Below are positions 157 through 14,006 of a stretch of 50,093 bases of DNA, piece after piece. Position 1 is the stretch's first letter; each line of letters begins with the position of its first letter. Origin of the DNA: Marivivens sp. (GTDB taxonomy: Bacteria > Pseudomonadota > Alphaproteobacteria > Rhodobacterales > Rhodobacteraceae); NCBI GenBank assembly GCA_024642145.1, contig JAHEBS010000001.1:1-50093 (forward strand), in the 5' to 3' direction. The notes below the pieces were generated by a model, which worked only from the letters and a program-made list of their open reading frames with translations, had not been told where the DNA came from and did not search any database. The position numbers were made by a program, and so were the translations under genes.

Positions 157-3100
157 CTAGACCGAGGTGGGCAGGCGGGCGCGGACTTCGGCGACGATGG
201 CGTCAAAGTCGAGCCCGCGCTTGGAATAGAGCCCCTCGACCCAGCCTTCCAGACGGTGGCGGTCCTCGGCGGTCAGGGTTTTGGCGGTGACCACGATCAC
301 GGGAATGCCTGTCCATTCGGGTCGAGACCGGAAAATCTCGGCGAATTCGAAGCCGTCCATCTCGGGCATCATCAAATCCAGCAGCACCAGCCCCGGCGTT
401 ACCGTTTTCAGCCGTTCAAGCGCCACGCGGCCGTTTTCGGCCTCGACCACCGCCAGACCGTTTTCTGTCAGCGTCCGCGCCAAGAGCGCGCGGGTGTCGT
501 CGTCGTCCTCGACCACCAGAACACTGGCCCCGTCCTTGCCACTCAAGAGCCGCCGGATCGAGCCGACAAGCCGCGCGCGGTCGATGGGTTTGGTCAGATA
601 TTCCGAGGCCCCCAGTGAAAAGCCCAGTTTCTTGTCCTCGATGATGGTCACCATCACCACTGGGATGGATTCGGTTTCGGGCAGGGCCTTCAATTCGGCC
701 AGAACAGACCAACCATCGGTGGCCGGCATGATGACGTCGAGCGTGATCAACTGTGGCTGCTCGTCACGCGCCATGCGGATGCCGGTCTTGCCATCCGCAG
801 CCTCGACGGTGCGATAACCTGCGGCGTTCAGGTTGCGGCGCAGCAATTCGCGCACCACGGCGTCGTCGTCGATGATCAGGACAAGCGGTGCGGTATCCGA
901 GGCGGGCGCAGGCGCGGTTTCGACCACAGGCGCAGGCGCCAAGGCCGAAGCATCGGTCAGCACGGTCATGGTGAACGTCGTGCCTTTGCCAAGCTCGCTC
1001 ACCACCGTCAGATCGCCGCCCATCATGCGACAGAACTCGCGCGTGATGGTCAGCCCAAGCCCCGTCCCCCCGTATTTGCGCGAGGTCGATGCGTCTGCCT
1101 GCGTGAAAGGCTCAAAGACCTTTTTCAACTGCTCGGGCGACATGCCGATACCCTGATCGGACACATCGACCTGCAGCATCCTGCCCTTGTCCGTGGTCGA
1201 GATGGTCACGGTGATCAGACCGTTTTCACAGAACTTGGCGGCGTTGGACAAAAGGTTGAAAAAGTTCTGCTTGAACTTGGTAAGGTCGGTATTGATGGTC
1301 TTGCGCCGCGCGCGATTGTCGATTTCCAGCCGGTTGTGGTTCTTTTCCACCACAGGCTGAATGGTGTTGCAGACGTCCTCCAGCAACTCGGACAAGGCGA
1401 ATTCTTCGACATAAAGCTCTAGCTTGCCCACCTCGATCTTGGACAGATCGAGGATATCGTTGATCAGCCCCAGAAGATGGCGGCCCGCCTTCTGGATCTT
1501 TTCAAGATCCGGCACATAGGCCTCTTCGCCATCGTCGGTGACCTCATCGATCAGCAGTTCGGAATAGCCGATGATCGCGTTCAACGGGGTGCGTAACTCG
1601 TGGCTCATATTAGCCAGAAACTGGGATTTGGCCGAATTGGCCTGAATGGCCGCATCACGGGCAACGGCCAGTTCCTTGACCAGTGCGTCCAGCTCTTCCT
1701 CGTGGTGTTTGCTTTCGGTCATGTCGGTCCAGATCGACACGATCCCGCCTTCACGCGTCTCGAATCCTTCCGAGCGGTACCAACGACCGTCGGCGTTGCG
1801 ATCCAGCGAACTCCGCACTTTCTGGGTGCGTCGGCTGCGCAGGACTTGCTGGCGCCATGCCTCGAGGTCCTCTTCCGAGTCGAAACTACGATAGGGGTTT
1901 TTCGAACGGCGGAAGAAGCTCTCGAATGTCTCGCCGATCTGGAATTCCTTGCCGTCCAGCAGCAGCGCGCGCATATGGCCGCGGGCCTTTTTGTTGATGG
2001 CCACCAACCGGTCTTCGCTGTCGTAGAGGGCAAAGCCCTGATCCATCGCCTCTAGCGCGTCGGTCAGGCGCTGGTGGGCAAGTTCGGTTTCGCGGGCCAG
2101 CCGCGCCAGCACCTCTTCGTGCTTTTTCTCTTCCGAGATGTCGGTAAAGACCGACACCGTGCCACCATCCACCGTGGCAAAGCCTTCGGATCGCATCCAG
2201 CGCCCCGACGGGGTCTGGTCGGTTGAAAGGCGGGTCTTGTTCGCGGCGCGGTTCTTCAACACGCGCTCGACCCATTCGCGTCCCTCTTTCCTTGTCTTGA
2301 TATGGTGCATGTGATGCGACGCTTTTTCGGTCAGATCGGCAAAAAAATCGCCTTCCACCATGCGGTATCCGCCGGTGAAATCTGCCATCAGATCGCTGGC
2401 GCGCTGGTTGAACAGCAGCACCCTGTCGTCCTTGTCGTACAGGATGATGGCCTGCCCCATCGCCTCGATCGCATCCATCAATCGCCGGTGCGCGATTTCC
2501 GCATCCTCCGCCAAAGCGGCGAGTTCGGCCTCGTGTTTCTTGGCCTCGGTGATGTCGGTAAAGACCGAAACCGTGCCCCCGTCAGACGTGGGGAACCCTT
2601 CAGATTGAAACCAGCGCCCCGAAGGCAGCAGGTCTGACGACAGCCTGACTTTCTGTGTGCGTCGTGTATGCAGAACCTTTTGAATCCACGCCTCTTTTTC
2701 TTCGTCGCTTCTGTCGCCCTGCATCAACCTGGCCGACTGCCGAAGCCCCATTTCAAAGGGTTGGCCAATCTGGGGCCGCGCGCCGCCGGTAAAGTCGGTA
2801 TAGATGTCCCGATACGAGCGGTTGAACAGGACAATCCGGTCGTCGGAATCAAAGAGAACGATCGCTTGCCCCACGGCCTCGACCGCGTCCATCAGTCTTT
2901 GGTGCGCGGCGGCCGCCTCTTCGCGGCTACGGGCGACCTCTTTTTCGGCTATGGTTCGTTCGGCCACCGACCCCAGCAGCGTGCCGACATGACCCAAAAC
3001 CTCGATGATATCGACATTTGCATGGGTAGGTTCGCGGGCAAAGAACTCCAGCACACCGACAACGCCCTCGTGCAGGACGACGGGAAAGGCCATGGCCGCG

Positions 3101-4191
3101 CTCAGGCCTGCTTCGCGGCAAAAGGCCTTGCGGCGGAAGGCACGGTCCCTCGAGACGTCTTCGATCCAGACCGGACGGCGCGCCTTGACCGCGCGACCGG
3201 GCAGCCCGTCCTTGGCGTCGAACCGCATGCTCTCGACCGCCTGACGCAGACGCGACATCCCCTGTTCATGTTCGATATGCCAGATACCGGTGGGCGTCAG
3301 ATGAACGGTTCTGCCCTCGGTCTTGGCGACATAGGCATGGCCGACCGACCAGCCGGTGAACATGCAGATCTCGTGCAACGCCGTCTGCAGCGCGGTTTCA
3401 AAACTTGTCGCGCTGTTGGCGGCCAGAACGATATTTTGCAGCAGCCGCACCGACGCGGTCCGTTCCGCCACCCGACGTTCCAATTCGTCATTGGCGTGTT
3501 GCAGGTCTTCCTTGGCGGCAAGTTCGGCGGTGATATCGCGGCCATAGACGTTGATATAACCCGCGTCCTTGATAAAGCCGAAGTTCAAGAGATAGGTCTG
3601 CCCGCTTTCGCAGTGGTATTCGGTGGTGCGGTTCTCGCCCGTGGCCACGACCTCATCAATCAAATCGGCCAAGGCCGAACTCAGGCGCTCTTGGGGACGG
3701 GTTTCCACCAGCCCGATGATTTTGCGCGCCGCGGCATTGGCCAGCAAAATCGCGCGATCGGGGCGGATGCGCACGACGGGGTTGGGGTTTTCCAGAGGAA
3801 AGCGTGCAGCCTCGGCCACGTCCTTTTCCGCGGCACGGACCTGTGTGACGTCGCGCAGATAGGCATTCACATAACCGCGGTCGGCCAGCGGATTGAACAG
3901 CGCGTTATAGATGCGGCCATTGGCGTGGATGTCGATGCGGCGCTGTTGGCCCGATTTGAGCGCCGCAGCCGCCTCGCGGGCGACCTTGGTCGCGGCCTTG
4001 GTCCCCTTGGCGGCCAAAAGCTCGCTCGCCTCTTTGGTGGCGGCGTTGGCATAAAGGATCTTGCCCGCGGCACCCACGCGAAAGATGGGATAGGGGCTTT
4101 CCTCGACGATACCGACTAGCGAGAGGTCTTGCCCCTCGTCCGCGGTCGCTTTGGTCATTTTGGCCATAGGTTGCTCCGACGCCCGCCCCAC
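157..4191 (-). CDS. Large hybrid sensor histidine kinase: two N-terminal PAS-like units, a GAF-like region, three tandem PAS-like units, HisKA, HATPase and two receiver domains
   Basis: A 1344-aa ORF. The H-box is [18 protein letters not shown]. The ATPase N/G boxes are LLSNAAKF and DQGIGM...GGTGLGLTI. The two REC domains are LVLIIDDD...TLDVIMP...YLTKP and VLVVEDDDD...[11 protein letters not shown]...VVTAK. The start could also be the MAKM codons a few residues downstream. Confidence 0.9.
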
Positions 4192-4199
4192 CGAGGGGG

Positions 4200-6167
4200 T
4201 CAGGTCGATTTGAATCCGATCTTGAGGTGCGTGTTATCGCAGAAGGGTTTGTTCGAGGAACCGCCGCAACGGCACAGCCGGACCGAGGTCAGGCGATCCA
4301 CGGTCCGCCCTGTTCCGGTGATGATTTCCAGATTGCCGTCGATCTGCAAGGGTCCATCCTTTTCGGGGCGGATCGCCAGCACATCACCACGGATCTTGAG
4401 CGGTTCCGAGGGGCGGGTATCGGGTTCGCCGCTGGCACTGAACCCGATTTCCTTGTGCGAGCCGTCACACCACGGCTTGTTCTTGGACGCGCCGCAGCGA
4501 CAAAGCGTGGCGCGGAAACCATCGCTCTTGCCGTCGATCTCGATGGTGGCGTTGACCGCATAGGGGCCGTTCTCGCGCAGCCGGATCGTATTGACCTGCG
4601 GCGCAGGTTCGGGCGGCAGATCGCCCTTGGGCGTATAGCTGATGGCCCCCGAGGGGCAGGTGACGCATACCGTGCGCAGGGCACCCGTCTCCATGGTTTC
4701 GGGATGCAGCCACGGTCCGACCACATTGGCCAAAAACACCTCGGGCGCGCCCAACACGCAATGGCGGGCATGGATGCAGCGCTGGGTATCGAAATGCAGC
4801 GTCAGGTCCTTGGCCTCGGCGCTTTCGGGCGCGTTGGCGGCCGCCGGATCGGTGGCCAACTCGCGCTTGCCCGAGGGCAGATCGTCGTGGACGATCTTGG
4901 CTTTCGGTGCGCGGGTTCCGGCGGCGGGGGGCGTGATCTTGTCGCCGATTTCCTCGATCTTGTCGGCAAGCTTGGACAGTTCATGGCCTTGGGGAAAGAA
5001 ATGGCGGCAATGGGCCACGATCTCATGGGTCCGCTCGGCCAGAACCAAGGGTTCGCTGTCGCCCAAGGGCAGGCGCTGAATATCACGGGCAAGGGTAAAG
5101 CTCATTCCCGCGGTGACACCGGGATATTCGGGGCCAGCGGGCAGGCTTGCCAGATACTCGCCCACCGGCATCAAAAGCCGCATCAGGTGGCGAGCCTGAT
5201 CGACATAGAGCTTTTTGGCGGCCTTGTTGGCGCTATCGCGCCCCCATGACTGCGCCAGAAAGCGCAACATCAGGTTATAAAGCGCATTGCCCAGATCCAT
5301 GGCGCGCAGCGCCTCGGGGTTTGTGACCAAAACGCAGCCTTCGTCCATATCCGTCAGACGGGGCCGCGGATTGCGGGCGACCGGATGGGCCGGTGCGAAG
5401 GTGGGGTCCGCCGCCATCATGGCGGCGAGTTCGTCTTTTACCGCCAGAAAGGCGTTATAGTGGCTGTCCTCGGAATGGGCCGGTGCGCCCTCGCCCTGTT
5501 CGACGATTGTCTCGATCGCATCATGGGCCGATGCCAGATCGGTCACGACCTTCAGCCCCGGCAAGGCGGCATCGCCCGGCCCGATCTGTTCATCGACGGT
5601 GCCACAGAACAGCGACTGGGCGCCGTAACGACGGTTAAGCACCTCGAACCCGTGGTAAATCCCGCGATAGAGATGCCCGATGGTTTGATAATCCTGCGCC
5701 GAGGGCATGATGGCGCCTTTGGGCATGGCGCGGTGATAGTCGTCAGGGCGGATGAACTCTGGCGCGTCGCTCATCTCCATGCCCTCGGGGCGTTCCAGAT
5801 AGATGGCGTGATCGACCAATGCGGGCGAAAAACCCACCAATTCCAGATCGATACCCGCCGGATGATAACCGGCGCGGATCGGGAATTCGGGCCGCGACAG
5901 ATGCGGCGTGCCACCGATGGCCGTCACCAGATTGCCGACAATGGTCAGATGCGTCATCTCTTCGATGGCGACATTCAACATGGCGTTTTTCCAACGCTTG
6001 ACGGTCGCCGCCTGCGCGGGTGTCAGCCCGTCGCGCTCGCCGCGCTTGAGGCTCCATATCCCGTAAAGATAGCAGCACATCACGTTGTGTTCGATCGCTG
6101 CCGCTTCGGCCAGCATATAGATCAGCTCTTCGCGATCACCGATCCTGAGGCGTGCTTCTTCGGTCAT
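4200..6167 (-). CDS. Ferritin-like domain protein fused to a divergent 4Fe-4S mono-cluster region and two CDGSH iron-sulfur domains
   Basis: The start is set at the ATG at 6167 ([13 protein letters not shown]...), preceded by AGGGAG. The N-terminal part has ferritin-like helices ([25 protein letters not shown]). The Cys-rich middle reads [13 protein letters not shown]...[12 protein letters not shown]. The C-terminus has [17 protein letters not shown] and [17 protein letters not shown]. The stop at 4200 lies 8 nt before the kinase start at 4191. Confidence 0.8.
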
Positions 6168-6236
6168 ATCCGCCGCTCCCTTTGGGCCGACTCTGCCCCA
6201 AACCGCCCCTGCGGAGCAAGGAATTAGCGTGGTTGC

Positions 6237-6246
6237 GCCACGTGGC
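6237..6246. promoter_or_regulatory. Perfect 10-bp palindrome GCCACGTGGC in the divergent intergenic region; candidate operator
   Basis: Read directly from the sequence. An upstream CGTGG (6228-6232) can also pair with CCACG (6238-6242). It lies between the divergent starts at 6167 (-) and 6276/6303 (+). Confidence 0.25.
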
Positions 6247-6275
6247 TTTTCGTTGAGTTTCCCCCACCCTTCCCT

Positions 6276-8033
6276 ATGCTGACCCGAAACGAGGACCGGG
6301 GAATGCCCTTGATGACAACTGCCCCAGAGCCCCAGACTCCCCCTCTGGCCGAGGTTGCCTTTGCCGTGGGCGTGACAGGTCATCGCAACCCGCGTGCCGA
6401 GGATATCACGACCCTGCGCGCGCAGGTCGGGGCCGAGCTTGCAGCCCTGCGTCGGCATCTGGATGGCACGCCCGTGGTGCTGATGACCGGTCTGGCCGCT
6501 GGTGCCGATATGCTGGCCGCCGAGGCCGCAATCGATGCGGGCATTGGCGTCGACGCGGTGCTGCCCATGCCGCGCACCGCCTATGAGTCCGATTTTTCAG
6601 CGGCCGAGCTGGCCGCGTTTTGCGAGATCGTCCGCAATCCGCTGGTGCGGGTGCGGGAAATTCCGCTGGCGCCGAGTGTGACGCCCGAGGCGCTGGCCCG
6701 CGATCAGGCCCTGCGCGACGCGCAATACGCGCGGCTTGGCGATTATTTACGCCGTCGTTCGAACCTGATGATCGCGCTTTGGGACGGGGCCCGCACCGAA
6801 CTGACCGGCGGAACGGGCGAGGTCGTCTTGGGTTATCTGGCTGACGCCACCGAGGGGCATATTGCCGAAATGGCCAGCGCCGCCGCGCCGGACGATTGCG
6901 GCAACGTGGTGGCGTGGATTGCGACCCCGCGCGCAGGATCGGGACAAAAGACCGGACCTACGCGGTATCTGGTTTCGACCGCGAACCATGACTGTTACGC
7001 GACCTTTGACAGCCCCCCCGCCGCCGTCATCCGCCGCTGGGAGGCGATGGCCGCGTTTCACGACGATCTGGCCTCGTCACAGGGCCGGAACCTGACGGCC
7101 TATCCCTTGGGTGACGCACCCTCGCCCGATCTGGCGGCCATTGACCTGCTGTATCAGCGCGCCGACCAATTGGCCCGCGCGGCACAGGACATGTCGAACC
7201 GGCTTTTCCGCTATTTCGCGCTGATCGCAGGGGCCATGGGGCTTGCGTTTCTGGCCTATGCCAAGCTCTGGGCCGAACCCGCCTTTCTGGTGGTCTATGT
7301 CTTGCTGTTCTTTGCGGGCTATGCGGGTTTCCGGTTTTCGGCGCGGATGCATCTGCATGGCCGCCATCTGGCCTGCCGCGTTCTGGCCGAAACCCTGCGG
7401 GTGCAGTATTTCCTGACCCTATCGGGCGCAGGCGCCGCCTATTCGCTGCGCCGCCTTCTGGATCTGACCAGTGTCGCGCGGTTCGAGCGTTTCGAATGGT
7501 TGCCCGAGGCGTTGCGCGCCGCCGAACCGCTGGTCTATGACCCGCCAACGGGCGACGAAGACGCCATTGCACGGGTGCGCGGCGACTGGATCGTTGACCA
7601 GCGCGACTATTTTTCGCGCAAGCTTCATAAGCTGCATCACGAACATGAACGGCTGGCGCGGTTCAAAACCGCCCTGCTCGGTGGGTCGGTTCTGGGGGCG
7701 CTTGCGCTGATTTTCATGATGGACGAATTGCATCACATGGAAATGGCGGGCCATGACGGCAAGGTCTGGCTGGTGTTCCTGATGGGGCTCTTGCCGCTTT
7801 GGGCCGCGATCTGGGAACTTTATCACGGCAAGATGGCCACCCGCGAACTGCTTTGGCAATACGCCAATCAGCGCCGGTTCTTTGCCACGGCTGAAACCGA
7901 AATCGCCATGGCAAAAGGCCCCGAGGCCGAACGCAAGGTGATCCGTGATCTGGCTGACAAGGCGCTGATCGAAATTTACCTTTGGTCTGTCCACCGGTTC
8001 CACCGTGAACACGAACCCCCTTCGGCAGGATAG
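6276..8033 (+). CDS. Membrane protein with an N-terminal SLOG-like (LOG/DprA/YpsA-type Rossmannoid) domain fused to two SLATT-like helix-plus-2-TM modules
   Basis: A 585-aa ORF. The N-domain motifs are VGVTGHR, TGLAAGADMLAAEAA, ALWDG and TGGTGEVV (the last resembles the LOG-type GGxGT motif). There are four predicted TM helices at about aa 312-329, 335-353, 465-482 and 497-515. Each pair is preceded by a charged helix (YQRADQLARAAQ... and DQRDYFSRKLHKLHHEHERL). The alternative start ATG at 6303 has a better GAGGA spacing. Confidence 0.6.
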   Translation: MLTRNEDRGMPLMTTAPEPQTPPLAEVAFAVGVTGHRNPRAEDITTLRAQVGAELAALRRHLDGTPVVLMTGLAAGADMLAAEAAIDAGIGVDAVLPMPRTAYESDFSAAELAAFCEIVRNPLVRVREIPLAPSVTPEALARDQALRDAQYARLGDYLRRRSNLMIALWDGARTELTGGTGEVVLGYLADATEGHIAEMASAAAPDDCGNVVAWIATPRAGSGQKTGPTRYLVSTANHDCYATFDSPPAAVIRRWEAMAAFHDDLASSQGRNLTAYPLGDAPSPDLAAIDLLYQRADQLARAAQDMSNRLFRYFALIAGAMGLAFLAYAKLWAEPAFLVVYVLLFFAGYAGFRFSARMHLHGRHLACRVLAETLRVQYFLTLSGAGAAYSLRRLLDLTSVARFERFEWLPEALRAAEPLVYDPPTGDEDAIARVRGDWIVDQRDYFSRKLHKLHHEHERLARFKTALLGGSVLGALALIFMMDELHHMEMAGHDGKVWLVFLMGLLPLWAAIWELYHGKMATRELLWQYANQRRFFATAETEIAMAKGPEAERKVIRDLADKALIEIYLWSVHRFHREHEPPSAG

Positions 8034-8035
8034 CC

Positions 8036-9487
8036 ATGGCAGAGACGGGCGAGGACAACGCTGGCTTCGAGATTAGACTGGGCAACCTGCGCCATGATCT
8101 GCGGACGCCCATCGGCCATATCACCGGCTATGCCGAACTGATCGAGGAGGACCTTGATGAGGCGGGGCGGGTCGCCTACGGGCCGGACCTGTCGGCCATT
8201 CTCGGGGCCGGACAGCGGATGCTGGGCATCATCGACCAGCATCTGACCGGCCCGCGCCACACCATCGAAGACATCGACCTGCAGGAGGCGCAATTCGCGC
8301 TGCGCCTGCACCTCAACCATATCGCAGGCTATACCGAGATTCTGCGTGAAGAGGCGGTCGACCGTGGCGATGATGCACTGGTTGCCGATCTCGACCACAT
8401 CAACAGGGGCAAACAGGACCTGCTGGCCCTGATCGAAGACATGGCGACCCGTCTGAGCGAGGATGGCGCGACCCCCGCCGACAAAGCCAAGACCGAGGAG
8501 CCCGAGGATGTTTTGTCCACCATCGTCGGCGTGGGTGGCGAGATTCTTGTGGTCGATGACGATGCGGCCAACCGCGAATTGCTGACGCGCCGTTTGGCAC
8601 GTGGCGGCTATAGCTCGACGGCGGTGTCCTCGGGCCAAGAAGCGCTGGACGCACTGGCCCAGCACCGCTTTGACCTCGTGTTACTCGACATGAAGATGGA
8701 GGGGCTTTCCGGCCTCGAAACGCTGCACCAGATCAAGGCCAATGCCCGCCTGCGTGCGGTGCCCGTCATCATGCTGTCGGCCGGAGATGATACGGCCCAA
8801 ATGGTGCAGACAATCCTTGCCGGAGCCGAGGATTACGTCGTCAAACCCTTTAACCCCGTCCTCTTGATCGCGCGCATCAACGCCTGCCTTGAAAAGATCC
8901 GCCTGCGCCAGAACGCGGCCCGCCAGATCAAGGTCTTTATCTCGTCCCCCGGCGATGTGATCCCCGAACGCCAGATCGCCAAAATGGTGCTTGGCCGCCT
9001 GAACGAGGAATACTCGGGACGCCTGTTGTTGGTGCCGATCTTGTGGGAGGAAGAGCCTCTCTTGGCCTCCGATACGTTTCAGGCGCAGATACACCCGCCA
9101 CATGAAACCGACATCTACCTCGGGATCTTGTGGTCCCGCATCGGCTCGCCCCTGCCCGCCTCCATCCGCCGTGCGGACGGGTCGCAGTATGAAAGCGGGT
9201 CGGTTTTCGAATTCGAGGACGCGCTTGAGGGGTTTCGCGCCTGTGGACGGCCCCAGATGCTGCTCTACCGCAAGGACGGAGCGCCGCAGGTTTCCTTGGC
9301 CGACAGGAACGACGTTCTGGACAGGCTGGACCAGATGGACAAGCTGCAGTCCTATCTGCAGACCAACCTCACAGGTGACGATGGTTCATATGTGGCGGCC
9401 TTTCACACGTTTCGTGGCGCGGCCGAGTTTGAAAGCATGATCGAAACCCATCTGCGCAAGCTGGTGCAGAAGTTCCTGACCGCCTGA
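8036..9487 (+). CDS. Response-regulator-type protein: two DHp/HisKA-like H-box segments without an ATPase domain, a receiver domain, and a C-terminal TIR-like (DUF4062-type) domain
   Basis: A 483-aa ORF starting 2 nt after the upstream stop. The H-box-like segments are LRHDLRTPIGHITGYAELI and LRLHLNHIAGYTEILRE. The REC domain reads ILVVDDD...LVLLDMKMEGLSG...YVVKPF. The C-terminal domain (aa about 298-415) reads IKVFISSPGDVIPERQ...LWEEEP...DIYLGILWSRIGSP...SVFEFEDAL...PQMLLYRK. This matches the DUF4062 pattern as I remember it (vFiSS..D...ER / E / D.y..i...R.GS / TE.E...A). Confidence 0.65.
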   Translation: MAETGEDNAGFEIRLGNLRHDLRTPIGHITGYAELIEEDLDEAGRVAYGPDLSAILGAGQRMLGIIDQHLTGPRHTIEDIDLQEAQFALRLHLNHIAGYTEILREEAVDRGDDALVADLDHINRGKQDLLALIEDMATRLSEDGATPADKAKTEEPEDVLSTIVGVGGEILVVDDDAANRELLTRRLARGGYSSTAVSSGQEALDALAQHRFDLVLLDMKMEGLSGLETLHQIKANARLRAVPVIMLSAGDDTAQMVQTILAGAEDYVVKPFNPVLLIARINACLEKIRLRQNAARQIKVFISSPGDVIPERQIAKMVLGRLNEEYSGRLLLVPILWEEEPLLASDTFQAQIHPPHETDIYLGILWSRIGSPLPASIRRADGSQYESGSVFEFEDALEGFRACGRPQMLLYRKDGAPQVSLADRNDVLDRLDQMDKLQSYLQTNLTGDDGSYVAAFHTFRGAAEFESMIETHLRKLVQKFLTA

Positions 9488-9553
9488 ACCTGCCCGCGAT
9501 TGCGCCAAAGCCAAGCCGCGACTAGACTTGAGGAAATTGACGGGAAATCTGCA

Positions 9554-9919
9554 ATGCCACTTATTCTGCTGGTCGAAGATAACGAGATGAACCGTGATAT
9601 GCTGTCGCGGCGGCTTCTCAAACGCGGGTTCGAGTTGCAGATCGCCGTCAACGGGCAGGAGGGCGTCGATATGGCGCTGTCTGGCAGCCCCGATCTGATC
9701 TTGCTGGATATGTCGCTGCCGATCATCGACGGTTGGGAGGCCGCACGGCAGATCAAGGCAGATCCCAAGGGCAAGGCCATTCCGATCATCGCGCTGACCG
9801 CGCATGCCATGGCGGGCGACCGTGAAAAGGCGATGGCCGCAGGTTGCGACGATTATGACACCAAGCCCGTGGACCTTGCGCGGCTTTTGGAGAAAATCAG
9901 CGCCCTGATCGGCGGCTGA
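9554..9919 (+). CDS. Single-domain CheY-like response regulator (receiver only)
   Basis: The start is set at the ATG at 9554 (MPLILLVEDNEMNRD...); the track ORF begins at a non-ATG codon at 9500. The acidic pocket is VEDN, the phospho-acceptor context is LILLDMSLP, and ALTAH and DDYDTKP are conserved. Confidence 0.85.
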   Translation: MPLILLVEDNEMNRDMLSRRLLKRGFELQIAVNGQEGVDMALSGSPDLILLDMSLPIIDGWEAARQIKADPKGKAIPIIALTAHAMAGDREKAMAAGCDDYDTKPVDLARLLEKISALIGG

Positions 9920-9929
9920 ACGGGCTGGC

Positions 9930-10958
9930 ATGGCCGAGGACGCAACACCCCAAGACGCAACCAAACTCCGCGCCGCGCTCTTGGCGGGCGGGGCCGAGGC
10001 TACGGCGGCGCGCAAGGCGCTGCTGGGCGGCAATGGCACCCTGCGGCAGGCCGATTTCGCGGAATGCGATCTGGCGGCGCGCGATCTGTCTGATCTGGAC
10101 CTGCAGGGCGCCGATTTCTTTGGCGCTGACCTGTCAGCGGCCAACCTCAAGATGGCCAAGTTGACCGGAGCCGAACTGGCCCATACTCGCCTGCACGCCA
10201 CCGCGCTCTACAAGGCGGAACTCACGGGCGCCATTTTGCTCGAGGCCGATCTGGAAGGGGCGGACCTGTCGGAATGCCATGCGCGGGGCGCTGATTTCCG
10301 CGGCGCGCGACTCGCCAATGCCAAGCTTTGCGGCGCCGATCTGCGCGATGCCGATTTTTCTTTGGCCGATCTCAGCGGCGCCGACCTCAGCGGCGCCGAT
10401 ATCGGTGGCGCGCGCATGACGGCCGCCCAGATCGACGGCGCCAATGTCAGCCGCCTGCGCTATGGCGGGTATCGCAAGATGAGCGGGCTTTATAACGGGA
10501 TCCGTGGCGTCGATCAGACCTTTGGCAATGCGCTTTTCGTGCGCGACGCCAAGGATCAGGATTATATCGACACGCTCGGGCAGGCGATCCAGGACATGGC
10601 GCCCGGACCGATCAGAATGCTGGAACAGGCCATGTTCCGGCTATGGGGCCTGATCGACCATGGGCGCAGTCTGTTGAAGGTCTGGCTATATGCCCTTGGT
10701 ATTGCGACACTTTATGGGCTTTTGTATTTGGCGGACATGTCGAACGACTGGGGGATCATGGATTATTCCACCTCGGCCAATACATGGTTCACGCCGTTCT
10801 ACTATTCGGTCGTGACCTATACGACACTGGGCTATGGCGATGTGACTGCCGATAGTCTGTTGGGCGAGATGTTGGTGGTGAGCGAAGTGGTGATCGGCTA
10901 TTTCACCTTGGGGCTTTTACTGGCGATCTTGGCCAATACCATCGCCCGTCGCAGCTAG
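9930..10958 (+). CDS. Pentapeptide-repeat domain fused to a 2-TM potassium-channel pore domain
   Basis: A 342-aa ORF. It has about 25 consecutive A(D/N)LxX-type pentapeptides (ADFFGADLSAANLKMAKLTGAEL...ADLSGADLSGADIGGARM). The C-terminus has TM1 (VWLYALGIATLYGLLYL), a pore helix plus selectivity filter (FYYSVVTYTTLGYGDV) and TM2 (VVSEVVIGYFTLGLLLAIL). Confidence 0.85.
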   Translation: MAEDATPQDATKLRAALLAGGAEATAARKALLGGNGTLRQADFAECDLAARDLSDLDLQGADFFGADLSAANLKMAKLTGAELAHTRLHATALYKAELTGAILLEADLEGADLSECHARGADFRGARLANAKLCGADLRDADFSLADLSGADLSGADIGGARMTAAQIDGANVSRLRYGGYRKMSGLYNGIRGVDQTFGNALFVRDAKDQDYIDTLGQAIQDMAPGPIRMLEQAMFRLWGLIDHGRSLLKVWLYALGIATLYGLLYLADMSNDWGIMDYSTSANTWFTPFYYSVVTYTTLGYGDVTADSLLGEMLVVSEVVIGYFTLGLLLAILANTIARRS

Positions 10959-10988
10959 GGCAGCCCCCCCACCACCGCTGATTCCCGC

Positions 10989-11021
10989 AAAAAATGGCGC
11001 CCGATACACTGGCGCATTTTT
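10989..11021 (+). terminator. Rho-independent terminator closing the four-gene operon
   Basis: The sequence is AAAAAAT(G)GCGCC-CGATACACT-GGCGCATTTTT. The GC stem has one bulge and is followed by a T5 run, 31 nt after the channel gene stop. Confidence 0.6.
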
Positions 11022-11227
11022 GTCACGCCATGGTCATCATATCGCAACCTTTGGATGCAAATCTGTAGACAATCCCATGCGATGGGTTCGTTCTATACGT
11101 GAGCCATAACGACGGTTGGCCGCTTCTCCCTCGGTCAGCCGAACCTGAAATGCCAGTGGGCACGGCCGCTTCCTCCCCGGTGACGACCCACTGGTTTTTT
11201 CTTGCCCGTCCGCTAGGCTCGGCCCCC

Positions 11228-12155: not shown

Positions 12156-14006
12156 ATGCTCAAGCTTGAAAACATATCCTACGCCATCGACGGCCGCCCG
12201 CTGATTGAAGAGGCCTCGGCCGTCATCCCGACCGGTCACAAGGTGGGCCTTGTCGGCCGTAACGGCACGGGAAAAACCACGCTCTTTCGCTTGATCCGCG
12301 GCGAGTTGTCGCTCGACCAAGGCGAGATCACCTTGCCCAAGGGCTGGCGCATCGGTGGCGTGGCGCAAGAGGTGCCGGGCAACGAGGTCAATCTGATCGA
12401 CACGGTGATGGCCGCCGATACCGAGCGTGCGGCGCTGATGGCCGAGGCGGAAACCGCCCATGATGCCCACCGCATTGCCGAAATCCAGATGCGGCTTGCC
12501 GATATCGACGCGTGGTCGGCCGAGGCGCGGGCCGCCTCGATCCTCAAGGGGCTAGGTTTCAACGATGCCGAACAGCTGATGCCCTGTTCGGCCTTTTCCG
12601 GCGGCTGGCGTATGCGCGTCGCGCTGGCGGCAGTGCTGTTTGCCTCGCCCGACCTGTTGCTTTTGGACGAACCGACCAACTACCTCGACCTAGAGGGTGC
12701 GCTTTGGCTGGAAAGCTATCTGGCGAAATACCCCCATACGGTGGTCATCGTCAGCCATGATCGCGGGCTTTTGAACCGCGCTGTGGGCTCGATCCTGCAT
12801 CTCGAGGACCGCAAGCTCACCTATTACCAGTCGCCCTATGACCAGTTTGCCGAAACCCGCGCCGCGCGGATCGCGCTGGCCGAGGCCGAAAACACCCGCG
12901 CCAAGGCACGCGTCGCGCATCTACAAAGCTTTGTGGACCGTTTCCGCTATAAGGCCTCCAAGGCTGTTCAGGCCCAGTCGCGCCTGAAGATGATCGAACG
13001 GATCAAGCTGATCTCGACCCCGCAAGAAGCCGCGCTACGTGCCTTCAGCTTTCCCGAACCCGAGGAACTGTCGCCGCCGATTCTGGCCGCAGACGGCGTT
13101 GCGGTGGGGTATGGCGAGCGTGTGGTGCTGGACCGGCTGGAGCTGCGGGTCGATCAGGACGACCGTATTGCTTTGCTCGGGCGCAACGGCGAAGGCAAAT
13201 CTACCTTGTCCAAGCTGTTCGCCAACCGCCTGGAGCCCATGAAGGGCCGGCTGACGCGGTCATCGAAACTGCGCATCGGCTATTTTGCCCAACATCAGGT
13301 GGATGAATTGCGGGTCGAGGAAACGCCCTTGGACCATCTGCGTCGCCTGCGCCCCACCGAGGGCCCTGCCCGCTGGCGCGCGCGTCTGTCGGGCTTTGGT
13401 CTGCAGGCGGCTCAGGCCGAAACCGTGGTCGGGCGGCTGTCGGGCGGGCAAAAGGCACGCCTGTCGCTGTTGCTGGCCACGCTTGATGCGCCGCATCTTC
13501 TGATCCTTGACGAACCGACAAACCACCTCGACATCGAAAGCCGCGAGGCGCTGGTCGAGGCGCTGACCGCCTATACGGGCGCGGTGATCCTTGTCAGCCA
13601 TGACATGCACCTGCTGAGCCTCGTGGCCGACCGGCTCTGGCTGGTCAAGGACGGGCGCGTCAAACCCTATGACGGCGATCTGGAAGACTACCGCACCAGC
13701 CTCTTGACCGGCGAGCGGGCCGAAGCCAAATCCGCCCCTGCCCCCAAGCCGCCCAAGCCAAGCCGCGATCAGTTGTTGAACCTGCGCGCCGAGGTTCGCA
13801 AATCCGAAGAACGCGTGACCAAGATCAACGAGATGCGCGACAAGCTCGCGACCAAGCTCGCCGATCCGGCGCTCTATGAGGATAGCCGTATCGGCGAGTT
13901 GGAAACGTGGAACCGCAAATACGCCGAAGTGATGCAGGGCCTGCACCGCGCCGAGGCGCTCTGGCTGGCGGCAACCGAGGCGCTTGAACAGGCCGAGAGC
14001 GCCTGA
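12156..14006 (+). CDS. ABC-F family ATPase (two ABC cassettes, no transmembrane domain)
   Basis: A 616-aa protein with two Walker A motifs (GRNGTGKTT, GRNGEGKST), two signature motifs (FSGGWRMR, LSGGQKAR) and a C-terminal coiled-coil tail. Confidence 0.92.
   Translation: MLKLENISYAIDGRPLIEEASAVIPTGHKVGLVGRNGTGKTTLFRLIRGELSLDQGEITLPKGWRIGGVAQEVPGNEVNLIDTVMAADTERAALMAEAETAHDAHRIAEIQMRLADIDAWSAEARAASILKGLGFNDAEQLMPCSAFSGGWRMRVALAAVLFASPDLLLLDEPTNYLDLEGALWLESYLAKYPHTVVIVSHDRGLLNRAVGSILHLEDRKLTYYQSPYDQFAETRAARIALAEAENTRAKARVAHLQSFVDRFRYKASKAVQAQSRLKMIERIKLISTPQEAALRAFSFPEPEELSPPILAADGVAVGYGERVVLDRLELRVDQDDRIALLGRNGEGKSTLSKLFANRLEPMKGRLTRSSKLRIGYFAQHQVDELRVEETPLDHLRRLRPTEGPARWRARLSGFGLQAAQAETVVGRLSGGQKARLSLLLATLDAPHLLILDEPTNHLDIESREALVEALTAYTGAVILVSHDMHLLSLVADRLWLVKDGRVKPYDGDLEDYRTSLLTGERAEAKSAPAPKPPKPSRDQLLNLRAEVRKSEERVTKINEMRDKLATKLADPALYEDSRIGELETWNRKYAEVMQGLHRAEALWLAATEALEQAESA

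Follow-up and report, generated by a model that had tools for sequence, protein, structure and literature searches.

A response regulator with a predicted TIR-like NIR output domain and a putatively co-translated SLOG membrane partner in a Marivivens genome

Domains of the DUF4062 (NIR) family have recently been described as TIR-like NAD+ hydrolases with a catalytic glutamate, according to the main text of three 2026 preprints (among them bioRxiv 10.64898/2026.05.01.722283 and 10.64898/2026.09.04.749371), in which the members include Swarozyc, Avs2, Vulcan and Vesta, Evangelion and human TEP1. The catalytic residue is given there as E97 in KpSwz, E108 in PsAvs2, E98 in Vulcan and E87, as part of E87-Y88, in Eva01, the βA strand of which carries the conserved F11. 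In these proteins the domain is controlled by a STAND, HEAT or auxiliary domain that senses phage. The present analysis concerns a gene at positions 8036–9487 of a 50,093-nucleotide (nt) stretch of DNA from Marivivens sp. (Rhodobacteraceae; GenBank assembly GCA_024642145.1, contig JAHEBS010000001.1, positions 1–50,093; hereafter the window), in which a predicted NIR domain lies instead at the C-terminus of the protein, under a phospho-receiver. The gene is preceded by another encoding a SLOG domain and four transmembrane (TM) helices, referred to here as the SLOG-4TM partner (Table 1).

Thoeris pairs combine a TIR enzyme with an effector, which is SIR2-SLOG in type I, a SLOG effector accompanying the TIRs of type III and a SLATT effector in type VII; SLOG and SLATT are predicted to be sensors or effectors for derivatives of ADP-ribose (ADPR). 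In the Spo0F-Spo0B-Spo0A and ChpT-CtrA relays, a kinase-inactive DHp histidine phosphotransferase shuttles phosphate between receiver proteins, while PleD (REC-REC-GGDEF), CheB and RpfG are enzymatic response regulators. The Marivivens system resembles both a Thoeris pair and the Spo0F-Spo0B-Spo0A relay and fits the definition of neither. As in Thoeris, the gene for a TIR-fold, NAD+-processing type of enzyme stands next to that of an effector with a nucleotide-sensing domain and/or a membrane module, the SLOG-4TM gene being coupled to it and the association being conserved. Unlike Thoeris, the enzyme is a NIR protein, with no Pfam TIR, TIR_2 or ThsB_TIR match in the window protein; SLOG and 4TM are united in one effector chain, and a His-Asp phosphorelay is proposed to act as trigger in place of infection by phage, for which no sign is evident. 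As in the Spo0F-Spo0B-Spo0A and ChpT-CtrA relays, the cluster encodes all three roles, those of single-domain receiver, DHp and receiver-output; the DHp module differs from Spo0B and ChpT in forming one chain with the terminal response regulator, in lacking any catalytic-domain remnant and in consisting of tandem hairpins with a single His. With regulators of the PleD type it shares a receiver placed in control of a nucleotide-making or nucleotide-destroying enzyme, activation by phosphorylation-induced dimerization being proposed here, but its output, in contrast to those of PleD, CheB and RpfG, is a TIR-like domain predicted to be of the NAD+-cleaving type.

Table 1. Coordinates of the features discussed, in nt of the window.
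Feature	Position	Strand	Basis
Hybrid sensor kinase, 1,344 aa, PAS/GAF/PAS_7 x3-HisKA-HATPase_c-REC-REC; candidate phosphodonor	157–4191	−	Pfam
Ferritin-like + Fer4_19 + 2x zf-CDGSH protein; divergent from the SLOG-4TM/NIR operon	4200–6458	−	listed start overlaps upstream gene
SLOG-4TM partner gene, 576 aa	6303–8033	+	AF2, Foldseek, Pfam of relatives, UniRef names, hydropathy, gene junction
SLOG domain of partner	about 6348–6980	+	AF2 and Foldseek
Four TM helices of partner	about 7212–7823	+	hydropathy
DHp-DHp'-REC-NIR gene, 483 aa	8036–9487	+	open reading frame list, translation, Pfam, >120 full-length homologue clusters
DHp-like hairpin 1, aa 11–72; H-box RHDLRTP, H20 codon 8093–8095	8066–8251	+	HisKA 39.7 bits; H20 invariant
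DHp-like hairpin 2, aa 84–140; degenerate duplicate, F87 at H-box position	8285–8455	+	hhalign; conservation
REC domain, aa 168–290; D218 codon 8687–8689	8537–8905	+	Response_reg 98.4 bits; invariant residues
NIR/DUF4062 TIR-like domain (predicted), aa 298–483	8927–9484	+	family-level PF13271; PADLOC PDC-S60; AF2 model
Single-domain receiver, 121 aa; Spo0F-like candidate relay or phosphate sink	9554–9919	+	Response_reg E 3.1e-24; start codon read
Pentapeptide repeats fused to K+-channel-like pore domain (Ion_trans_2)	9930–10958	+	Pfam
ABC-F type ATPase	12156–14006	+	PADLOC mad3 and AriA matches, E 1.1e-44

An original prediction, made from the letters of the window, had read this gene as ATPase-less DHp segments followed by REC and a TIR-like C-terminus, a layout that was borne out; the peptide strings that it quoted were all found at the residue numbers given for them in the product. 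Full-length homologues of the protein form more than 120 clusters with 56–74% identity, chiefly from marine Rhodobacteraceae/Paracoccaceae (Actibacterium, Aliiroseovarius, Shimia, Aliiruegeria and Marivivens), and a genome scan revealed the DHp-REC-NIR architecture in Neptuniibacter, Colwellia and Thalassotalea, as well as in metagenome-assembled genomes (MAGs) labelled Betaproteobacteria, Burkholderiaceae, Akkermansiaceae, Acidobacteria, Acidimicrobiia, Trueperaceae, Fimbriimonadia and Holophagae. Conservation was assessed in an alignment of 26 full-length homologues (56–74% identity), throughout which H20, H95, D174, D175, D218, Y267 and K270 are invariant, together with four C-terminal blocks (F301–V308, W337–P341, W366–P374 and E392–A396) reading FISSPGDV, WEEEP, WSRIGSPLP and EFEDA. 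Mean identity amounts to 60% and 50% in the two hairpins, 71% in the receiver and 69% in NIR, and falls to 18% in the 26 residues ahead of the receiver, the least conserved segment of the protein. In one MAG locus (L005, 7443–8942), which also encodes a 768-aa Isochorismatase-TCAD9-phosphatase protein, the DHp and REC-NIR parts belong to a single reading frame that is interrupted by a stop codon near 7782, representing a pseudogene or an assembly error; the locus hence offers no evidence for a fission of the gene into these two parts, and that idea was dropped.

The C-terminal domain is assigned by profile matches to a divergent subfamily of DUF4062/NIR. The window protein itself matches DUF4062 over aa 299–376 with 14.2–16.2 bits (E 0.05–0.012), which is under the Pfam cut-off of 24.7 bits, and PF13271 is matched by all 30 aligned relatives of the domain, with a best E of 3.6e-7 in a trimmed alignment. 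Some relatives bear PF13271 in their precomputed annotation or DUF4062 in their NCBI name, and a further match, to the N-terminus of PADLOC candidate PDC-S60, covers aa 297–476 (E 5.7e-7). The DUF4062-type, TIR-like output envisaged in the original prediction is thus upheld by the whole set of relatives, and the family has since been shown to be a NAD+ hydrolase. In common with PsAvs2, KpSwz, Vulcan, Vesta, Evangelion and TEP1, the domain is assigned to a PF13271-type family and has a predicted β-α-β TIR-like fold, an N-terminal strand of the form (V/I)F(I/V)SS in which the Phe is conserved, and a Glu-aromatic pair where αC begins. It differs from them in its pairing with SLOG-4TM and in lying in a syntenic chromosomal cluster of the Roseobacter group without recognisable defence genes.

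A model of the domain calculated with AlphaFold2 (AF2; pLDDT 92.3, pTM 0.88) comprises five strand-helix units in the order E-H-E-H-E-H-E-H-E-H, and displays the TIR-like three-layer α/β arrangement with five parallel strands. Comparison of this model with the Protein Data Bank (PDB) using Foldseek returned generic flavodoxin-like folds with TM-scores of 0.3–0.5, too low to separate TIR from flavodoxin; the top TM-score, 0.45/0.51 with a probability of 1.00, belongs to the plant RPS4 TIR domain, a weak and non-discriminating match, and the DUF4062 structures of the 2026 preprints are not among the PDB matches. The family assignment therefore rests on sequence profiles. A PDB search with the trimmed C-terminal profile found nothing at E≤10, and an earlier one was discarded because its alignment rows contained receiver domains and it returned only receiver structures.

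In the model, E392 (codon 9209–9211; E100 of the domain), followed by F393, occupies the first turn of helix αC (model residues 96–111). Both E392 and F301, the Phe of strand βA, are invariant in all alignments and across architectures, and E392 and the motifs FISSPGD, WE and WSRxG persist down to about 35% identity across four architectures. E392 is therefore likely to be the catalytic glutamate. The original prediction had proposed the WEEE stretch (aa 337–340) instead, but this lies directly after strand βB, in the BB-loop region, whereas the αC position is held by E392, and WEEE was rejected as the catalytic site. A purely structural role is conceivable, the domain being then a non-catalytic TIR-like adaptor: some TIR domains are only scaffolds, as discussed in the main text of the preprints, and the Pfam match of the window sequence is below threshold. 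This alternative is highly improbable in view of the far-reaching invariance of E392 and the three motifs and of the conservation of NIR, which equals that of the receiver to within two points of mean identity.

The N-terminal region matches HisKA over aa 16–68 (E 4.9e-10), above the Pfam cut-off of 26.9 bits, and Response_reg is matched by aa 170–281. No HATPase_c match occurs anywhere in the 483-aa protein, in line with the lack of N, G1 and G2 ATPase boxes after the hairpins noted originally. The two DHp-like hairpins are identified as an internal duplication by hhalign, which aligns aa 8–76 with aa 77–150 at a probability of 98% (E 1.6e-13). In this alignment the canonical H20 of RHDLRTP pairs with F87 of the second repeat, and H95, likewise invariant, is aligned with H28, a residue that lies two turns of the helix past the acceptor and not at the phospho-acceptor position; the protein therefore contains two DHp-like hairpins and one H-box. 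Of the two DHp/H-box segments claimed in the original prediction, the duplicated helices stand, while the second H-box, with Phe at the His position, does not. H-box histidines lacking conservation would have spoken against that reading; H20 is invariant, as is H95 in the second string, the latter off the acceptor position. The tandem hairpins probably pack as a single-chain four-helix bundle with one phosphorylatable His, and it is plausible that this putative DHp module serves as a His-phosphotransferase in the manner of Spo0B, ChpT or HPt.

The receiver, placed at aa 168–285 or thereabouts in the original prediction and called canonical there, indeed has a complete pocket, with the acidic pair D174/D175, the acceptor D218, the aromatic Y267, K270 and S248, the last being S or T among the homologues. 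Its best sequence match in the PDB is PleD, and its helix α5 continues as a linker into the NIR domain. Because HATPase_c is missing and the gap between DHp and REC consists of only 26 poorly conserved residues, the protein is regarded on its domain content as a bona fide response regulator and not as a histidine kinase, despite the UniRef names of its relatives. Hundreds of proteins are called 'histidine kinase' or 'ATP-binding response regulator' without having an ATPase domain, and their annotation needs correcting.

A candidate phosphodonor and a candidate intermediate are encoded nearby (Table 1). The hybrid kinase contains no HPt domain detectable with Pfam, and nearly every DHp-REC-NIR locus includes a homologue of it, as well as one of the small receiver (65–77% identity); the order kinase, small receiver, DHp-REC-NIR recurs often and across phyla. 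Synteny of the whole cluster extends to Actibacterium pelagium and across genera of the Roseobacter group. These arrangements bear on the part played by the DHp module, which might be only a dimerization scaffold or a phosphatase of the receivers, D218 being phosphorylated directly by a kinase or by an HPt encoded elsewhere. In favour of such a role, no catalytic ATP-binding domain accompanies the module, the H-box His is gone from the second hairpin, and the remaining H-box reads H-D-x-x-T, which is also the HisKA phosphatase motif. On the other hand, H20 and the entire RHDLRTP box are invariant in the 26 homologues, the hybrid kinase ends in receivers without an HPt and hence needs a His relay, and the gene order recurs as described; a scaffold or phosphatase role without phosphotransfer is accordingly rated as rather doubtful, and a relay through H20 is preferred.

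The SLOG-4TM gene had no place in the original reading of the locus. Its stop codon lies 2 nt ahead of the ATG of the NIR gene (8036), the ribosome-binding AGGA of which is located inside the 3' end of the SLOG-4TM gene, and the two genes are, by this junction, predicted to be translationally coupled. The AF2 model of aa 20–310 of the partner (pLDDT 92) identifies its N-terminal domain as a predicted SLOG Rossmannoid fold: all 16 Foldseek matches at E≤1e-3 are SLOG proteins, comprising YpsA (E 2.6e-6, TMt 0.64), ShosA, 12 DprA chains and the LOG-family TM1055, and the SLOG domain of ThsA bound to 3'cADPR follows at E 3.9e-3. The single sequence gives only weak YAcAr, DprA and ShosA matches; among 17 relatives of the partner, YAcAr is matched by 12 and DprA by ten, at sub-threshold Pfam scores. 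The C-terminal half contains four hydrophobic helices in two pairs. Homologues of the partner are named 'SMODS and SLOG-associating 2TM effector' or DUF4231 in UniRef; the window protein has no match to Pfam SLATT, and one relative (L077) matches SLATT_1 weakly, with E 1.8e-4. The motifs GHR, AxGxD and WDG...GGT are invariant. Channels of the TRPM2 type are gated by ADPR and possess an N-terminal SLOG-like (LSDAT/MHR) domain. Taken as a lead only, they resemble the partner in the joining of a SLOG-fold cytoplasmic domain to a membrane module, for which nucleotide gating is proposed here, and differ from it in being six-TM channels, compared with four helices and SLATT-like naming in the partner; TRPM4 is only a weak fold match of the partner model (E 0.043, probability 0.25).

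The association between NIR and SLOG genes was surveyed with tblastn and HMM scans in 87 sources, made up of 80 loci retrieved with the NIR profile plus those collected earlier. A SLOG-like gene was found in 49 of the 87, nearly always as a single match adjoining the NIR gene. Receiver-type loci possess it in about 30 of 36 cases, despite shifts in gene order and strand: it usually lies immediately upstream, with stop and start overlapping or nearly so, and is found immediately downstream in Colwellia (L038), one gene off in L039 and L041 and on the other strand in L032. About 21 of 45 loci encoding NIR-nSTAND1-TPR proteins also have a SLOG gene, which is divergent and adjacent to the NIR-STAND gene in L044, L045, L054, L060 and L063 and stands one beyond it in L042, L049, L052, L056, L061, L065, L067, L068 and L071. 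In L082 (1586–3376) a patatin phospholipase (Patatin E 2.9e-29) is fused to a SLOG-like domain and overlapped from 3373 by a NIR-STAND gene; patatin would be a second kind of effector attached to this sensor-like domain. Of five distant SLOG-4TM homologues (24–36% identity), four adjoin canonical TIR genes (TIR/TIR_2/ThsB_TIR; L087, L088, L090 and L091), often with nSTAND1, which is a further likeness to Thoeris; the fifth (L089) has no adjoining TIR gene. These distant loci may represent an undescribed Thoeris-like effector family. Since the SLOG gene occurs beside NIR genes of both the receiver and the STAND type, and beside TIR genes, the partner follows the enzyme and not the receiver, and accepts either TIR or NIR.

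Two further observations concern the surroundings of SLOG-4TM genes. In L042 (13781–15976) and L061 (13907–15391), a conserved gene of 494–731 aa, without a Pfam match, is located between NIR-STAND and SLOG-4TM in a gammaproteobacterial three-gene arrangement. L090 is a dense island with DUF4062-TPR, SIR2_2-TIR_2, TIR-PDZ and TrkA_N-RyR genes.

The SLOG-4TM partner shifts the likely mechanism from simple consumption of NAD+, as implied by the original prediction, to a Thoeris-like pair of enzyme and effector. The reading favoured here, and considered on balance probable, is that a phosphorelay running from the hybrid kinase through the small receiver, H20 and D218 switches on NIR, and that a NAD-derived product acts on the SLOG membrane effector in a Thoeris-like manner. 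The PAS/GAF hybrid kinase would autophosphorylate and pass the phosphoryl group to its own receiver or, Spo0F-style, to the 121-aa receiver, from which it would reach H20 of the ATPase-less DHp module, acting like Spo0B or ChpT, and then D218 in the receiver of the same protein. Phosphorylation-driven dimerization or oligomerization of the receiver, relayed via the continuous α5/linker helix, would bring the NIR domains into an active assembly, in which E392-dependent cleavage of NAD+ would yield ADPR, or a derivative of it that is cyclic or modified in some other way. Binding of this product to the cytoplasmic SLOG domain of the partner would alter the four-helix membrane module so as to give a pore, a channel or a perturbation of the membrane. 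Of this scheme, the identities of the domains, the conserved residues for catalysis and phosphate acceptance, the duplication of the hairpins, the SLOG fold and the linkage of NIR and SLOG-4TM genes are observed, while the course of the phosphotransfer, the activation by assembly, the chemistry of the product and its reception by SLOG are inferred.

Several points weigh against this reading. According to the main text of the preprints, every characterised NIR converts NAD+ into ADPR and nicotinamide and is a terminal, NAD+-depleting effector, and a signalling product of NIR figures there only as speculation, the NIR preprint leaving the matter open. The undiscriminating fold comparison of the NIR model described above is another. 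Relatives in which NIR is fused to a cyclic nucleotide (cNMP)-binding domain have no SLOG partner nearby, so that the NIR enzyme can work alone, and no SLOG gene is present in the available DNA of some other loci. Lastly, the SLOG-like domain is also met without an effector, either as short standalone proteins of 206–273 aa (L062, L076, L084 and L086) or, in the 1,550-aa protein P0352, as aa 38–191 ahead of NIR (aa 238–425) and STAND-TPR; a co-enzyme or regulator therefore fits these forms as well as a receptor does.

The first of these points, exemplified by Avs2, Swarozyc and Vulcan, and the cNMP-NIR relatives without a partner are what a terminal NAD+-depletion switch would lead one to expect. 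In such a system, phosphorylation would drain NAD+, resulting in arrest, dormancy or abortive infection, and SLOG-4TM, not being the receptor of the product, could act as anchor, modulator or safeguard. A depletion switch leaves unexplained why SLOG genes with effector modules (4TM/SLATT-like or patatin) track NIR in both receiver and STAND architectures and why, in other genomes, canonical TIR genes take the place of NIR beside SLOG genes, and it is considered unlikely. A different role for the partner is suggested by the effector-less SLOG forms, both the P0352 SLOG-NIR-STAND fusion and the standalone proteins beside NIR-STAND genes: SLOG could be a second enzyme acting in series on NAD+ or ADPR, for instance by LOG-type N-glycosidic cleavage, or a direct regulator of NIR, and not a receptor. 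Certain SLOG clades are enzymes, and a catalytic function is possible for the invariant motifs GHR, AxGxD and WDG...GGT. The fusion to 4TM in most loci, and once to patatin, is nevertheless the pattern of a ligand-gated effector, and the nearest structural matches belong to the non-catalytic YpsA and DprA clades, which makes this explanation distinctly improbable. The preferred reading remains that of a NIR product sensed by the SLOG membrane partner.

Settings of the NIR domain other than DHp-REC were collected in a search with aa 293–483, and include fusion to a receiver only, fusion to a cNMP-binding domain, a position before TPR and, most commonly, the N-terminus of nSTAND1/AAA_16 STAND NTPases, among them Pfam-confirmed NIR-nSTAND1-TPR proteins of about 1,212 aa. 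The nearest relatives (45–52% identity) form the N-terminal effector domains in NLR-like proteins of the nSTAND1-TPR type. An exhaustive phmmer search with the domain gave 4,538 representative clusters at E≤1e-3; among the best 144 of these, 116 have it N-terminally in long NLR-like proteins and five show the response-regulator layout. The cNMP-binding-NIR fusions (L003 8001–8999, L004 and L026; P0137–P0147) share about 63% identity in NIR and keep the linker helix VLLKARI.AC..K, the same as receiver helix α5, which suggests a swapping of sensor domains on a fixed linker-enzyme module. A 336-aa neighbour of the cNMP-NIR gene was considered as a partner and rejected, being unconserved beside other NIR genes and without TM or SLOG features. 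Two NIR-STAND proteins (P0366 and P0370) appear, from a reading of their sequences, to carry N-terminal FHA-like or Ser/Thr-kinase-like regions. Expansion of NIR is seen in one Rhodospirillaceae MAG with at least four separate NIR loci (L025–L027 and L029), in two tandem NIR genes in L031 and in two NIR-STAND modules within the 1,456-aa protein P0336. 'Standalone' NIR proteins of the P0162 type were rejected as frameshifted NIR-nSTAND1 genes.

Other genes of the neighbourhood are less directly connected to the NIR gene. A homologue of the pentapeptide/K+-channel protein lies directly beside that of the hybrid kinase in L017, L019, L020, L022 and L036, and this protein seems, from its gene position, to go with the kinase and not with the NIR gene. 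The ferritin-like/CDGSH gene, the listed start of which is probably too far upstream, making the open reading frame too long, keeps its place in loci of the Roseobacter group, a synteny that may point to iron or redox state as an input of the pathway. The mad3 and AriA matches of the ABC-F ATPase probably reflect generic ABC-ATPase similarity and no defence gene; indeed, no defence genes were recognisable near the locus, a PADLOC scan over about 20 kb returning only generic ABC-ATPase, receiver and HATPase matches. No sigma-70-like promoter was found in 5900–11200 by a promoter scan. The synteny across genera favours a resident signalling role, although it agrees equally well with a function in suicide or dormancy triggered by stress. 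It is tentatively proposed, as a possibility with somewhat less than even prospects, that marine Roseobacter-group bacteria and scattered members of other phyla use the system as a housekeeping, phage-independent second-messenger pathway, in which a kinase-driven His-Asp-His-Asp relay would control NIR and a NAD+-derived product would gate SLOG-4TM.

The original prediction had known of no response regulator with a TIR-like output, and literature searches for receiver-TIR fusions or TIR-like response-regulator outputs likewise found nothing relevant. The main text of the three 2026 DUF4062 preprints, leaving aside their figures and supplementary trees, makes no mention of a receiver or response-regulator fusion, and that of two of them, within the same bounds, mentions neither SLOG, SLATT or transmembrane modules nor patatin.

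TIR-like/NIR NADases have so far been known as infection-triggered immune executioners or signal generators. If the favoured reading is correct, the protein would represent a new enzymatic output class of response regulators, and a TIR-fold enzyme that could be switched in vitro by acetyl phosphate, BeF3- or a D-to-E mutation. The pairing of NIR with SLOG-4TM, and the replacement of NIR by TIR elsewhere, allow the production of a signalling nucleotide by NIR to be tested directly, and the pairing suggests an as yet unrecognized family of Thoeris-like effectors. In the housekeeping pathway tentatively proposed above, immune-type TIR signalling would have been domesticated by a two-component system in these bacteria, providing a bacterial counterpart of the ADPR-gated channels.

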